DNA from: an uncultured Candidatus Saccharibacteria bacterium
Lineage (GTDB): Bacteria; Patescibacteriota; Minisyncoccia; Phycocordibacterales; UBA9973
Reading direction: 5' to 3'
Assembly: GCA_964527235.1 (NCBI GenBank)
Contig: CAZGNC010000002.1
Span: forward strand, 14,275-78,274
DNA: 64,000 nucleotides
Shown: positions 10,125 to 54,414 of the stretch, piece after piece
Position numbering within the stretch: position 1 is the stretch's first letter
Layout of the letters: the number at the start of each line of letters is the position of its first letter
Position numbers and translations under genes: made by a program
Notes under the pieces: model-generated
Told to the model about the DNA's origin: nothing
The model's database searches: none
What the model saw: only the letters and a program-made list of their open reading frames with translations

Positions 10125-10481
10125 TTATTTCTTCTTGGCGTCAGCAGCAGCTCCGGCAGTAGCAGTAGCAGCCTTAGCCTGAGTTATCTCAGCTTCTTTC
10201 TTCTTCTGCTCTAATTCTTTCTGCATCTTACCTCCGTGTTTTATAAACTTCTTAGTTGGAGAAAATTCACCAAGTCTGTGACCAACCATGTCTTCGGTAA
10301 CTAGAACATCGATATGGGTTTTGCCGTTATAAACGCCAAAAGTAAACCCGAGCATTTCGGGAGCTATCTGACAAGCCCTTTTCCAGGTCTTGATAGTTGG
10401 TGTATTGAGCGGAGTTTTACCGGCGATCTTCTTCAAGAGGCCTTCGTCCACAAACATTCCTTTTTTAATTGATCGTGTCAT
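10125..10481 (-). CDS. rpsS: 30S ribosomal protein S19, with a Lys/Ala-rich C-terminal tail
   Basis: MTRSIKKGMFVDEGLLKK...GHRLGEFSPT matches the S19 N-terminus (E. coli MPRSLKKGPFID). The ORF-track start at 10523 falls inside the upstream promoter -10 element, so the internal Met at 10481 is preferred. Confidence 0.8.
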   Translation of the reverse strand: MTRSIKKGMFVDEGLLKKIAGKTPLNTPTIKTWKRACQIAPEMLGFTFGVYNGKTHIDVLVTEDMVGHRLGEFSPTKKFIKHGGKMQKELEQKKKEAEITQAKAATATAGAAADAKKK

Positions 10482-10525
10482 ATAACGGGTAACAAAAAAG
10501 CTCCCAATCGAGCCTTGAAACATAC

Positions 10526-10553
10526 TAGCAAATATAAGAAGAATGTCAAACTC
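10526..10553 (-). promoter_or_regulatory. sigma70-like promoter for rpsS-rplV-rpsC... (TTGACA, 16 nt, TAGTAT), at the distal edge of the GC-rich insertion
   Basis: Minus-strand TTGACAttcttcttatatttgcTAGTAT lies immediately downstream of the GC hairpin terminator at 10571-10601. Confidence 0.4.
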
Positions 10554-10557
10554 TTCC

Positions 10558-10601
10558 TAGAAAGAGAGATGCCCGCCTAGCACACAATGGTGCTGGCGGG
10601 C
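10558..10601 (-). terminator. rho-independent terminator of the GC-rich cassette (12-bp GC stem plus T-rich tail)
   Basis: Minus strand: gcccgccagcaccattgtgtgctaggcgggc followed by atctctctttct. Confidence 0.5.
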
Positions 10602-10812
10602 TGTTCCCGATATTACTTCTAGCGTTCCGCTCGCAGAGAGCGGTAAAACATTTTCCCGAGATGCTCGGGTCAGCCCCTGTGAAGTGGTATTCCCTTGCTA
10701 GGAGAGAATAGCACCCATCCACGACCGTAGGCCCGTCGAGATGGTCTCCATTTTTACTAGAGTGGAGATTCTCTTTACTATCCACGGTCAGAGTTCATCC
10801 CGTGGTGCTACT

Positions 10813-11043
10813 TTACGACACCGGCCGGGAGTGAGCGATCGCGAACATCGCAGAGACCACTTCGGCCTGAAGCTCATCGAACTCCGGCTGCGCTGGTGCA
10901 CAGCCCATCAGGTGATGCGCGAGCCGTCTTTCGACGGCCGCGACAGTGTTCTGGTCGCTGACGGGAAACCCAGACAAGACCTGAACCGCAACCTGCTGCG
11001 AGACGACAGACGAACTCCTCTGCTGCGCTGGAAAACGGTACAT
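10813..11043 (-). CDS. GC-rich small ORF (76 aa) of unknown function, inside the rpsS/rplB intergenic insertion
   Basis: The ATG at 11043-11041 is preceded by AGGAGA 7 nt upstream and a near-consensus promoter. About 60% GC against about 40% in flanking genes. No recognisable family. Confidence 0.4.
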   Translation of the reverse strand: MYRFPAQQRSSSVVSQQVAVQVLSGFPVSDQNTVAAVERRLAHHLMGCAPAQPEFDELQAEVVSAMFAIAHSRPVS

Positions 11044-11091
11044 GCAAGTCTCCTGTGAAGAGCGGAGCCCGAAATTGGACCCTCTAAATTA

Positions 11092-11121
11092 GAGTATATC
11101 ACAAATAAACACAAAAGTCAA
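11092..11121 (-). promoter_or_regulatory. near-consensus sigma70 promoter (TTGACT, 17 nt, TGaTATACT) driving the GC-rich small ORF
   Basis: Minus strand: cgtaTTGACTtttgtgtttatttgtgaTATACTcta, with an extended -10 TG. Confidence 0.5.
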
Positions 11122-11155
11122 TACGAAAAAAGCCCTTATTTTAATGGATAAATTG

Positions 11156-11191
11156 GCAAAAGAAGAGCCCCGCCAGACAACCTGGCGGGGC
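11156..11191 (-). terminator. GC-rich hairpin terminator (gccccgccag...ctggcggggc plus T-run) ending an upstream ~300-nt non-coding, hairpin-rich segment (11192-11480)
   Basis: Minus strand: gccccgccaggttgtctggcggggc tcttcttttgcc. Confidence 0.45.
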
Positions 11192-11479
11192 GATTACCGG
11201 CCCTCAAGGGCCAGCATGCCCGAACACGACCATGCGTGCTCGGGGTCAAATATTTCGAGACACATAGAGTGCCTTGATGAAACAAAGGATTGGGCGGGGA
11301 GCCACTAAAAACCGTCCCTTATAACACCAAGAACACCTATGCGCCCGATTTTTCAAGAACTGAAAGTGGGAGAGCCTGGCCAGAGCCGAGCATGAAGTAG
11401 GGTTCCGGGCCCACACAACATGATCGGGATAGCCAGACTCATCTAAAACCAACAATAGCATATTATAAAAATTTGTCAA

Positions 11480-11510
11480 CAAAAAATCCCCTTGATTGGG
11501 GATTCCTTGT
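11480..11510 (-). terminator. host-type rho-independent terminator immediately after rplB
   Basis: Minus strand: ggaatccccaatcaaggggatt followed by tttttg. Confidence 0.55.
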
Positions 11511-11518
11511 TTTTAGTA

Positions 11519-12358
11519 TTATTTATTCTTTCCGGTCTTTCTTCGTGACACGATGAATACGTTTGAGTATTTCTTTGGAGTTCTGGTCTTTCGTCCACCA
11601 GTGATCTTACCCCACATGGTCTTAGGTCGGCGGGTTCCTCGTCCTTGTCTTCCCTCACCTCCTCCGTATGGATGATCTACTGGGTTCATGGCAGTACCTC
11701 GCACTGTTGGGCGGATACCCTTCCAGCGACTTCGTCCTGCTTTACCATAATTTTCCAAATGATGTTCTTCGTTTGAAACTACTCCGATAGATGCCCAGCA
11801 ATTCTCGTCGATTTTTCTAACTTCAGTAGAAGGCATCTTGATGTTAGTGTAACCGTCAGCGTTAGCCACAACTTGGGCGAACACTCCTGCGCCACGACTA
11901 ACTTTCGCACCACCACGAGGCTTGATTTCAATATTGTATACAAAAGTTCCTACTGGGATATTCCTAAGAGGTAGGCGATTTCCTGTAGCAAGCTCAGCTT
12001 TCTCAGAAACGATAAATGTATCTCCGGGCTTAACAGACTTCGGAAGGATTACATATCTCTTCTCTCCATCCTTGTAAACTGCTATACCGATGAAAGCAGA
12101 ACGGTTAGGATCATACTCAACACTCTTGATAGTTGCAGGGATGTCTTTCTTGTCGTATAGAAAATCCACATCTCGGAAGAGTCTCTTGTGTCCCCCACCC
12201 TTGTGTCGCATGGTTATGCGTCCTTGGCTATTTCGGCCAACAGAACGACGAAAACCGTGTACTAGAGATTTCTCTGGAGTAGACTTGGTTAGAACATCGC
12301 GGTAATTGATGTTCGACATCTGTCTGCGTGATTTACTTGTAGGTTTGTATGTCTTCAT
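11519..12358 (-). CDS. rplB: 50S ribosomal protein L2
   Basis: L2 N- and C-terminal domains (HKGGGHKRLFR, GRNSQGRITMRHKGGG..., HPYGGGEGR). Confidence 0.95.
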   Translation of the reverse strand: MKTYKPTSKSRRQMSNINYRDVLTKSTPEKSLVHGFRRSVGRNSQGRITMRHKGGGHKRLFRDVDFLYDKKDIPATIKSVEYDPNRSAFIGIAVYKDGEKRYVILPKSVKPGDTFIVSEKAELATGNRLPLRNIPVGTFVYNIEIKPRGGAKVSRGAGVFAQVVANADGYTNIKMPSTEVRKIDENCWASIGVVSNEEHHLENYGKAGRSRWKGIRPTVRGTAMNPVDHPYGGGEGRQGRGTRRPKTMWGKITGGRKTRTPKKYSNVFIVSRRKTGKNK

Positions 12359-42346: not shown

Positions 42347-42547
42347 ATGAACGACATGCAGAGGGTGTTTGTAGTTGTGAAAATCAACACTAAATACCCC
42401 AAGAGGTGGTCAGTACGTGAAGAAATTCGTAGGATCACTGGTGTGAGTATTCCCTGGAAAGAGGGAGACTCTTACCGTTTCGACATCAAGAAGGGTGACG
42501 TCCGGAAGCTCGTCGACGCCGGCCTCAACGTGGAAGTGGTGGAATGA
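42347..42547 (+). CDS. GC-rich small ORF C1 (66 aa), unknown function
   Basis: Strong SD; about 52% GC. Stop overlaps the next start (ATGA). Confidence 0.4.
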   Translation: MNDMQRVFVVVKINTKYPKRWSVREEIRRITGVSIPWKEGDSYRFDIKKGDVRKLVDAGLNVEVVE

Positions 42548-42792
42548 CAGAAACAAGAGAGAAAGAGAAGCCTTTGTTGATCTTTGGGGGACACGTGGGC
42601 TTGAGCCAGGCCCAAGTAATCAGGATTCTGGACGAACTAGGTGTCCATCACCGAGCAACACCCTCATCGAACCTGTACCACGTCAGGGTGTCAGAGTCCA
42701 GCGACCTGAGCTGGATTGATCGGTTGCTGGAACGGGGTATCGACATTTCGCCGCCCGGCAAGATTCATCAGGTGCCAACGCCAAAGAGATAA
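42544..42792 (+). CDS. GC-rich small ORF C2 (82 aa), unknown function; translationally coupled to C1
   Basis: 4-nt overlap with C1, followed by a GC hairpin terminator (42821-42856). Confidence 0.4.
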   Translation: MTETREKEKPLLIFGGHVGLSQAQVIRILDELGVHHRATPSSNLYHVRVSESSDLSWIDRLLERGIDISPPGKIHQVPTPKR

Positions 42793-42856: not shown

Positions 42857-42863
42857 ATGGGTG

Positions 42864-42947
42864 TGCCCAGGGGGAGACTCGAACTCCCATGCCCTTGCGG
42901 GCGCTACCACCTCAAGGTAGTACGTCTACCAGTTTCGCCACCTGGGC
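42864..42947 (-). tRNA. tRNA-Leu (GAG), class II with a long variable arm
   Basis: Reverse complement gcccagg...anticodon loop uuGAGgu...variable arm...T-arm ggagttcgagtctcc...cctgggc a. Confidence 0.65.
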
Positions 42948-53269: not shown

Positions 53270-53341
53270 GCCCTCATAGTTCAATGGATAGAATGCGAGC
53301 TTGCGGAGTTTGCGATGTAGGTTCGATTCCTACTGAGGGCA
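53270..53341 (+). tRNA. tRNA-Arg (anticodon tentatively GCG; the anticodon stem needs two G-U pairs)
   Basis: gccctca ta gttc aatggata gaat g cgagc uuGCGga gtttg cgat gtagg ttcgatt cctac tgagggc a. Confidence 0.5.
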
Positions 53342-53415
53342 CAAAATAACAAAATACCCAGTTTCTGGGATTTTTAGAACTATAAAATATAATAAAAATT
53401 CCTCTCTACAGATAC

Positions 53416-53444
53416 TTGACTTTTTGAGTCGGTGGTGATATAAT
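53416..53444 (+). promoter_or_regulatory. consensus sigma70 promoter TTGACT, 17 nt, TGaTATAAT for the GC-rich collagen-like gene
   Basis: cTTGACTttttgagtcggtggtgaTATAATcac; then SD GAGGGGG 7 nt before the ATG at 53514. Confidence 0.55.
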
Positions 53445-53513
53445 CACGAAAGATCCTAAGTGGGGCACCCTGCCCTAATGAACCTTGATTTATGCCCTCC
53501 GAGGGGGCAAAAT

Positions 53514-54296
53514 ATGTGGCTGATCAAGATGCTAGCATTCTGCTTCCTTTGGGCCATCATGGCCGCAGAGGAAGGGCTCCGCCTAGTGGCGGACGCCCTG
53601 AAGGAGTCCTTCGGGACGGCGCTTCTGGGGAGGAAAAACGTACCGTTCTTGGTGTTGGCGCTCATCCTGAGCACAACCCAGCTCGAGGCGCAAGCACCCC
53701 GACGGACCGCAGACAACTCTGTAACCCCCCAGTGCAACCTGGGGACCGACTGGTCGGTCAACAAAAACCGCCCCGTTGCTTCCGACGAGAAGCTCTACCG
53801 CCTCGAAGGCGGTCCCGCCATCGTCGCCCAGCGCGAAGCACCCGGATCGACGCACATCGTCTACCGGCGATGCAATGTACCCCCAGGAACCGAAGCGTAC
53901 TGCAGCATCAGAGGCTGCTGGATCAAGGTCTGTGGCAACGACCTTGGTTCTCCTGAAGGATGGAAGTTCCCCATCGAAATACCGATGGGAGCGCCTGGAG
54001 TGAACGGGCGCGACGGGAAGGATGGACGAGATGGCCGTGATGGACAGATCGTCTACGCTCCCCCTGCATCGACCGCCCTAGTGCCAGACTTCGACGGACG
54101 ATACAAGGTCCGCGGGGATAGGGGCTTCTGGTGTTTCCGTGGTGCAGGTCAAGGTGCATTTTGCACCGCGATCGCCACCACAGCGGTCCTTGTGGCCAAG
54201 AACAACCTGCCACGAAAGGATGACGAGCCCAAGGGCGGCAAGCCCATCGTCGTAACCCTCCCCAACACAATCCTGATGGCGCTGTTGGGTCGATAA
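53514..54296 (+). CDS. GC-rich (about 58% GC) secreted protein with a short collagen-like Gly-X-Y run and several Cys; unknown function
   Basis: Hydrophobic N-terminus MWLIKMLAFCFLWAIMAA. GAPGVNGRDGKDGRDGRDGQ gives six triplets. The start is chosen at the SD-preceded ATG rather than the longer ORF-track start. Confidence 0.45.
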   Translation: MWLIKMLAFCFLWAIMAAEEGLRLVADALKESFGTALLGRKNVPFLVLALILSTTQLEAQAPRRTADNSVTPQCNLGTDWSVNKNRPVASDEKLYRLEGGPAIVAQREAPGSTHIVYRRCNVPPGTEAYCSIRGCWIKVCGNDLGSPEGWKFPIEIPMGAPGVNGRDGKDGRDGRDGQIVYAPPASTALVPDFDGRYKVRGDRGFWCFRGAGQGAFCTAIATTAVLVAKNNLPRKDDEPKGGKPIVVTLPNTILMALLGR

Positions 54297-54414
54297 CATC
54301 TTGCAGGAGGTTGAGTACTGGAAAGGACTCATCTTCCTGTACTCTTCAAAGTTATGAGAACAAAGTCATGATTTTGAAGAGTAAAATATTAGTTTTACTT
54401 TTAATTAAATTATT

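Follow-up and report, generated by a model that had tools for sequence, protein, structure and literature searches.

The stretch of DNA analysed here (the window) comprises 64,000 nucleotides (nt) of contig CAZGNC010000002.1 and carries on its minus strand an S10-spc ribosomal protein cluster, with rpsJ, rplC, rplD, rplW and rplB followed by rpsS, rplV, rpsC and rplP onward; the Pfam labels of these genes were taken from identical products. The rplB product shares 85-88% identity with the L2 proteins of Nomurabacteria, and the organism is a member of the Patescibacteria (Nomurabacteria/Paceibacterota). Our subject is the spacer of about 1037 nt (10482-11518, minus strand) between rplB and rpsS, two genes that an earlier note on this DNA had described as normally adjacent and as separated here by a foreign cassette. 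We describe the genes and RNAs that the spacer holds, how they differ among close relatives, and the break in the operon in which they lie. All predicted units of the spacer lie on one strand and, read along the minus strand, they follow one another between the two ribosomal genes in this order:

11519-12358, minus strand: rplB (ribosomal protein L2), the upstream flank, a 279-amino-acid (aa) open reading frame (ORF) with Pfam Ribosomal_L2_N/C on the identical protein
11478-11511, minus strand: putative intrinsic terminator hairpin of rplB, GGAATCCCC-N6-GGGGATT and then U-rich TTTTTTGTT
11452-11479, minus strand: promoter P1, TTGACA-16-TATTGT, from the promoter scan, predicted to drive RNA1
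11160-11445, minus strand: RNA1, a structured RNA of ~285 nt, here its type A allele, recognised by fold score and the lack of a conserved ORF
11367-11445, minus strand: conserved 5' hairpin of RNA1, from stem comparison among alleles
11167-11191, minus strand: putative RNA1 terminator, an 11-bp GC stem with a U-tract, from the terminator scan
11093-11121, minus strand: promoter P2, TTGACT-17-TGaTATACT (extended TG), from the promoter scan, left border of the variable cargo slot
10813-11043, minus strand: orf76, gene of a 76-aa orphan protein, with an AGGAG Shine-Dalgarno (SD) sequence at 11050-11054, 6 nt before the ATG
10602-10812, minus strand: 3' element, a structured RNA of ~210 nt downstream of the cargo ORF, from covariation and broken frames
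10571-10601, minus strand: T2, a 12-bp GC hairpin closing the cargo unit, seen in the sequence and possibly a terminator
10522-10549, minus strand: promoter P3, TTGACA-16-TAGTAT, from the promoter scan, for rpsS-rplV-rpsC
10497-10516, minus strand: terminator-like rpsS leader hairpin with a U-run, from the scan and its conservation across Nomurabacteria spacers
10125-10481, minus strand: rpsS (ribosomal protein S19), the downstream flank, Pfam Ribosomal_S19 on the called products

Promoters and terminators were called as consensus matches in a sequence scan and are treated here as predictions of what is used in the cell. The scan found 6 promoter-like sites in the spacer versus 2.8 +/- 1.6 in shuffles, and 9 terminator-like sites versus 2.4 +/- 1.3. 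The stem of the rplB terminator reads AATCCCC-loop-GGGGATT, and a counterpart hairpin is also present in relatives. Most of the parts named in the earlier note were recovered, namely a terminator belonging to rplB itself, a hairpin-rich segment of about 300 nt without an ORF that ends in a terminator, the near-consensus promoter that we call P2, and an AGGAG-preceded ORF of 76 aa; its list was incomplete, as P1, ahead of the hairpin-rich RNA, had been overlooked. The terminator that it placed at 10571-10601 stands in part, as the 12-bp GC hairpin is there but the U-tract is poor and the scan made no terminator call. The GC content of 55-60% that it gave for the spacer applies only to the core at 10700-11100 (0.56-0.625), the average of the whole spacer being 0.51 versus a window mean of 0.413. 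The start of rpsS was set by homology at the ATG at 10481-10479 (MTRSIKKG); an ATG at 10523 would give a longer ORF but runs into the -10 box of P3, and it was rejected as the start.

The same spacer was recovered, letter for letter, in 4 independent assemblies, from runs SRR14271365, SRR14271366, SRR14271372 and SRR14271373 (L083, L089, L088 and L107). This agreement among independent assemblies shows that the spacer is no assembly artefact, a possibility that had been raised for this join. Allelic versions came from at least 6 further samples (L081, L082, L087, L095, L112 and L115-L117), and four complete alleles and a fragmentary fifth were compared:

Window: RNA1 type A; orf76; 3' element present
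L081: RNA1 type B; orf76; 3' element present
L082: RNA1 type B; orf98 and orf39, with their own putative terminator; 3' element absent
L095: RNA1 type B'; orf117; 3' element present, 92.7% identical to that of the window
L112 (fragmentary, fifth): another GC-rich ORF of at least 103 aa, joined 12 nt before T2

Type B' follows type B as far as hairpin 2, which covers the spacer's initial ~300 nt, and differs in the remainder. The flanking genes relate the four complete alleles as (window,(L081,(L082,L095))), the window being 93.6-94.5% identical to the others (93.6-94.3% to L081) and L082 98.1-98.6% identical to L095. Upstream and downstream flanks yield one and the same four-taxon grouping and the distribution of cargo is incongruent with it, in a comparison of four genomes only: the closest pair, L082 and L095, carry unrelated cargo, and the most distant pair, the window and L081, both carry orf76. 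Between flanks that are 93.6-98.6% identical, the P2 slot thus holds at least four unrelated GC-rich cargos and RNA1 occurs in three variants, and RNA1 type, ORF type and 3' element assort independently. The comparison of rplB-rpsS junctions that the earlier note had called for therefore shows an insert that varies, with at least four cargos, at a split that is itself shared.

The junctions of these alleles were located as well. P2 is kept in the window, L081, L082 and L095 and homology stops at its -10 box, so that the left junctions all fall within ~5 nt of that box. The right junctions fall at three places, the stop codon, a point just before T2, and the -35 box of P3. The stem of T2 is invariant and its loop has one difference among the window, L081 and L095, and L112 keeps T2 though the remainder of its 3' element is gone. 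The tidy left border invites the idea of a dedicated cassette-capture system, integron-like or RNA-mediated, that would place promoterless GC-rich cassettes precisely behind P2. In its favour are the left junctions of three cargos within ~5 nt of the -10 box, the fact that GC-rich DNA starts at the predicted transcription start, and the motif TTGACT-N14-TGATATAMT, of which P2 and a site at 53416 are the only perfect instances in the window, the second one also heading a GC-rich orphan island. However, no integrase or recombinase and no attC-like repeats are present at the locus, the right junctions lie at three different positions, and clustering of the left junctions would also be expected from selection for expression together with homology that ends where the cargo starts. 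We regard such a system as barely credible. The likeness to an integron lies in a fixed, predicted strong promoter (Pc there, P2 here) followed by exchangeable short coding cassettes; unlike an integron, the rplB-rpsS locus has no IntI, attI or attC, its neighbours are all ribosomal genes, its right junctions are heterogeneous, and the ends of the cargos share no common imperfect inverted repeat of the attC kind. A more specific form of the idea, which we consider very improbable, is that the P2 slot is an undescribed gene-capture and expression site receiving promoterless GC-rich cassettes at the P2 start, with RNA1, whose scaffold is invariant and whose apical modules are wholly exchanged, as a possible guide or specificity RNA. 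This would imply that an ultra-small genome of the Candidate Phyla Radiation (CPR) has a cassette system that works without an integrase and may be guided by RNA, and we hold that implication to be very improbable too.

Evidence that the cargo is maintained comes from orf76. The L081 allele differs from that of the window at 24 nucleotides; 20 of these fall at third codon positions, and 21 of the changes are synonymous and 3 non-synonymous. Because of this excess of synonymous change, orf76 is, as judged from its substitution pattern, a genuine protein-coding gene under purifying selection, as the earlier note had supposed. An antisense frame of 105 aa over orf76 was considered as the gene and rejected, as it would have ~19 amino-acid changes in the same stretch; coding potential on this other frame is thus not conserved. 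The GC content of orf76 is 0.61 versus 0.38-0.45 in neighbouring genes. By codon position it is 0.68, 0.44 and 0.71 (GC1, GC2 and GC3), with GC3 values of 0.30-0.42 in the neighbouring ribosomal genes, a composition that resembles that of a genome of ~60% GC. Together, orf76 and orf117 have GC3 values of 0.70-0.74 (0.70 for orf117).

Database searches returned next to nothing for these proteins. The sole homologue of orf76 is its own allele, P0001, both among 5.8 billion clustered proteins and among 1.84 billion representatives searched exhaustively with HMMER, and the database matches of orf117 are itself only. A second hit to orf76, P0002 (E = 3e-5), was set aside as a repeat artefact, the match falling in seven repeats of a tandem-repeat protein of 854 aa. 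No match to orf76 was found in Pfam, PHROGs, PADLOC, PDB sequences or a phage tblastn search, no cargo protein belongs to a Pfam or PHROG family, and orf76 was met in the rplB-rpsS context only. A single-sequence AlphaFold model of orf76 has three helices with a predicted local distance difference test score (pLDDT) of 56, a confidence too low to justify searching for similar folds.

The speed at which small orphan genes are exchanged suggests a role in conflict or interaction that is specific to the strain, and we may speculate that the cargo acts, for example, in interaction with phage or host; no defence, toxin or immunity family was matched. One could go further and see the cassettes as a strain-specific conflict system (anti-phage defence, toxin-antitoxin or immunity array) in which the RNAs would act as partners of the small protein, with the latter serving as effector or immunity factor. 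The extreme turnover of orphans among near-identical strains is typical of conflict loci, the promoters of the units are predicted to be strong, and orf117 has a weak, non-significant match to the immunity protein family Rap1a (E = 0.075). On the other hand, orf76, orf117, orf98 and orf39 have no match in PADLOC at E <=1, nor does any cargo match Pfam or PHROG, and the independent assortment of RNA1, ORF and 3' element argues against a co-adapted RNA-protein pair. Toxin-antitoxin systems of types I and III differ further in that the spacer has no antisense unit and no tandem RNA repeats (none were found in a search of the spacer) and in that RNA1 and ORF types are not co-inherited. We consider a conflict system of this kind quite unlikely.

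The two hairpin-rich segments of the spacer behave as structured non-coding RNAs, as had been proposed, on the basis of fold score, stem conservation and compensatory pairs. For RNA1, the region 11160-11450 on the minus strand has a minimum free energy of -139.4 kcal/mol (z = -7.8 versus 200 shuffles) and no conserved ORF, its single short frame shrinking from 29 aa in the window to 18 aa in L081. Where alleles differ in the 5' hairpin the base pairing is kept, and the 82-nt 5' hairpin is identical in L081, L082 and L095. Between the longer type B RNAs of L081 and L082 the 3' third is nearly identical, and hairpins 2 and 3 have non-homologous apices above a retained 17-bp stem. These apices of ~50 nt (L081:5024-5071 versus L082:3566-3616, and those of hairpin 3) are unrelated despite flanks that are 96-97% identical; they have no match elsewhere in the window or in the compared loci, and therefore a spacer-like origin is not indicated. 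In the 3' element, 12 of 67 predicted pairs show compensatory double changes among three sequences, versus 0-3 pairs when the structure was slid by 1-3 columns and 4.3 +/- 1.6 in column shuffles, and insertions or deletions of 1-2 nt break all reading frames. The 3' element follows two different ORFs, orf76 (window, L081) and orf117 (L095), and is absent in L082. An 8-nt complementarity between RNA1 and the 3' element is at chance level.

Neither RNA could be assigned to a described family. The lone Rfam match in the spacer was anti-hemB at 24.3 bits versus a gathering score of 49.5, driven by terminator hairpins, and none of the families 6S, SRP, RNase P, tmRNA, OLE, ROOL, GOLLD and the ribosomal-protein leaders reached the gathering threshold. 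Rfam in E-value mode gave sub-threshold noise only for the spacer, seven allelic or related loci and a second GC-rich island of the window, the whole window at the gathering threshold gave tRNAs only, and ARAGORN found no tmRNA.

We then compare the junction itself across 80 genomes retrieved with L2, grouped by the identity of their L2 to that of the window; a promoter-like site was counted when it lay within 140 nt of rpsS:

L2 identity >=79% (Nomurabacteria/Paceibacterota), 18 genomes: L2-S19 gap 78-3723 nt, median 358; rpsS promoter-like site in 15 of 18
L2 identity 57-79%, 19 genomes: L2-S19 gap median 1115 nt; rpsS promoter-like site in 12 of 19
L2 identity <57% (mostly other phyla), 26 genomes: L2-S19 gap 2-110 nt, median 25; rpsS promoter-like site in 0 of 26

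The median gap of 25 nt in distant genomes confirms that rplB and rpsS normally adjoin one another. Within the lineage, even the relatives with minimal gaps (L001, L006, L017, L021 and L102; 78-199 nt) have a near-consensus promoter, TTGACW-17-TGCTAWTAT, and retain an AAGCUCG...CGAGCUU hairpin with a U-run before rpsS. The split was therefore not caused by the insert seen here, because promoter and leader hairpin are present even in the shortest gaps. On this comparative evidence, the L2|S19 break, the rpsS promoter and the leader hairpin are ancestral to Nomurabacteria/Paceibacteria and older than the present cargo. Two claims of the earlier note give way at this point: the insert does not split the operon, since the break is clade-wide and already there at gaps of 78-190 nt, and the rpsS promoter is not fresh, since a homologous one is found in 15 of the 18 relatives with L2 identity of at least 79%. 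In two Paceibacteria labelled Giovannonibacteria (L039, L045) the L2-S19 junction is tight. No paper describing a split of the S10 operon in CPR was found in our search of the literature.

In L001-L022, L101 and L102, the promoter and then the AAGCUCG...CGAGCUU hairpin lie within the final ~60 nt of the L2-S19 spacer, just ahead of the start codon, as they do at 10497-10549 (minus strand) of the window, and rpsS-rplV-rpsC may here have a ribosomal-protein leader or attenuator of a new type. In Escherichia coli, the S10 leader is a ribosomal-protein operon leader and attenuator controlled by L4. By analogy, the conserved terminator-like hairpin between P3 and rpsS would resemble an attenuator; the likeness is confined to the P3 leader and does not extend to the 1-kb cargo, and there is no Rfam leader match.

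What fills the gap in relatives is very diverse and includes small basic ORFs, dgkA, and larger or housekeeping genes. The spacers of L005, L007, L011, L012 and L082 contain very basic mini-ORFs of 31-83 aa (isoelectric point 10.3-12), each preceded by an SD sequence, often GC-enriched and with putative terminators of their own; no Pfam family was matched. They could encode peptides that are specific to the lineage and bind nucleic acids or ribosomes. A gene of the DgkA family (prokaryotic diacylglycerol kinase) lies directly upstream of rpsS in more distant Paceibacteria (L016:8036-8428, L025:5069-5461 and L028:3194-3580), and DNA matches related to these loci also occur in L027, L029, L031 and L044.

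A different view of RNA1 is that RNA1 (perhaps with the 3' element) is a resident RNA of the lineage, serving ribosome biology or regulation of the operon, or else a very divergent housekeeping RNA, that co-expression is the reason for its place in the S10 operon, and that only the ORFs are incidental cargo. RNA1 is indeed present in all four complete alleles, folds strongly and lies within a ribosomal operon. Only two positions vary across the four allele types in the P1 region and 5' end (~50 nt around P1, with flanks that differ by 1.4-6%), and the 82-nt hairpin shared by L081, L082 and L095 is invariant where the flanks differ by 1.4-4%. However, a covariance model of the 5' hairpin matched only the four allele types (61 sources) and nothing in 57 other Patescibacteria loci, no Rfam family was found even at E = 1, and relatives with gaps of 78-190 nt have no room for RNA1. 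Moreover, its apical domains are wholly exchanged between near-identical genomes, and its architecture, a row of local hairpins, is unlike that of 6S, SRP, RNase P or tmRNA. We therefore think that a resident role for RNA1 is unlikely as the explanation of the locus.

The reading that we favour, and hold with moderate confidence, is that the rplB-rpsS junction is a moron-like hotspot of accessory expression, set in an operon whose split is ancestral. Small accessory units, each transcribed independently, would have come to gather at this old split point of the S10 operon. One unit would be RNA1, lineage-restricted and structured, with its own P1 and terminator; the other would be a P2-headed expression slot, here filled by orf76, the conserved structured 3' element and a closing hairpin, after which the ancestral P3 and its leader would restart rpsS. 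Cargo would be swapped by homologous recombination, with crossovers in the essential ribosomal genes and in the short promoter and terminator linkers, and the incoming DNA would probably be taken up directly or carried in by phage, from a source of higher GC. The notion of a self-contained foreign module is thus kept in part: GC3 is foreign-like and the units have their own predicted promoters and terminators, but at least three units assort independently. Likewise, to call the insert tolerated inside the most conserved operon of the cell overstates the case, as the junction appears to be a general accessory-gene hotspot in this lineage.

Several points weigh against this interpretation. The promoters and terminators are consensus matches alone and T2, the presumed end of the cargo unit, has a poor U-tract. 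Only 2-4 sequences underlie the covariation statistics of the RNAs, and these same sequences served to predict the structures; the allele types number four or five only. The left junctions, within ~5 nt at the -10 box, are tidier than random homologous-recombination breakpoints would be, and the presence of RNA1 in all four full alleles may mean that it is a resident functional RNA rather than cargo. Finally, phage, viral, plasmid-independent protein and metagenome searches yielded no donor and no homologue of any cargo; the label foreign refers to composition alone, because no donor or cargo homologue was found. A phage or viral origin was sought by blastn and tblastn versus phages and by two protein and two DNA-pattern scans of viral contigs, all of which were empty. 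The single metagenome match to the 21-nt P2 linker, L099, lies inside an unrelated AT-rich coding region and was dismissed as chance.

Phage morons are independent transcription units inserted between adjacent genes, and what marks them is a promoter and terminator of their own together with a deviant GC content (PMC3594210); the spacer units share these traits. Their sigma-70-type promoter and terminator matches exceed those in shuffles, they sit between usually adjacent genes and are absent or different in close relatives, and orf76 deviates from its neighbours in GC (0.61) and GC3 (0.71). Unlike morons, they lie in a bacterial chromosome within a full S10-spc cluster, with no phage genes nearby and no phage similarity; one of the units is a non-coding RNA, and the promoter apparently stays while the cargo changes. 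The same deviant GC, orphan genes and moron-like units might suggest that a prophage or other mobile element has decayed to leave this spacer, or that the spacer is a chimera of assembly. Against a remnant stand the lack of any phage or viral match at the DNA or protein level, the lack of mobility genes (a search of the ORF list and of repeats found no integrase, transposase or repeat borders between rplB and rpsS), and the purifying selection on orf76 and on RNA stems, which indicates parts that are maintained and not decaying; a chimera is contradicted by the identical sequence from four runs and the allelic versions from at least 6 other samples. Taken as one explanation, remnant or chimera is extremely improbable. 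A 13-nt inverted repeat (12/13 complementary) around the spacer, at 10468-10480 and 11546-11558, is no more than chance would produce over this length of sequence, and both of its arms are coding, in the start of rpsS and the end of rplB.

A further parallel to the moron-like hotspot that we favour is found in the chromosomal hotspots of horizontal gene transfer (HGT), which lie between core genes and owe their diversity to homologous recombination (Oliveira et al. 2017, PMC5635113). As in those hotspots (PMC5635113), the spacer is flanked by core genes, lacks recognisable mobile genes, turns over fast and has mosaic borders in conserved sequence. It differs in lying inside an otherwise near-invariant operon, in the tiny size of its cargo (39 to >117 aa, plus RNAs), and in that its internal promoter and terminator linkers also serve as module borders. 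What would be new, judging from the sequences compared, is the combination of moron-like cassettes in an HGT hotspot, an unusual conserved location, and two unclassified RNA motifs.

The S10-spc cluster is an archetype of conserved gene order and a phylogenetic marker set. A whole CPR lineage has broken this cluster at L2|S19, with rpsS acquiring its own predicted promoter and leader, and the break has become a fast-turnover slot for orphan genes that are predicted to be strongly expressed and for new structured RNAs. Exchange of accessory functions thus appears to be within reach even of bacteria whose genomes are <1 Mb and whose site of exchange lacks recognisable mobile elements. The locus yields two candidate RNA motifs outside Rfam and several orphan proteins, probably highly expressed, and offers a well-delimited natural site to study recombination-driven gene turnover in uncultivated episymbionts. 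For the annotation of metagenome-assembled genomes, it suggests that contig breaks or odd GC within Paceibacteria ribosomal operons are real biology and not mis-binning.

Two other GC-rich patches of the window deserve mention. One, with 59% GC, is the island at 53416-54334 (plus strand), which comes immediately downstream of the tRNA-Arg(gcg) gene at 53270-53342 and is headed by TTGACT-N14-TGATATAAT, a predicted promoter of the P2 type. It contains an orphan ORF of ~260-278 aa with a GC3 of 0.70, a hydrophobic N-terminus and a collagen-like GxxGxx run, and no phage match to the island was found. At 42347-42792 (plus strand), in a patch of 54% GC for which Rfam reports the tRNA only, two GC-rich ORFs of 66 and 82 aa next to tRNA-Leu(gag) at 42863-42947 overlap at stop and start in an ATGA and may be another small accessory pair.

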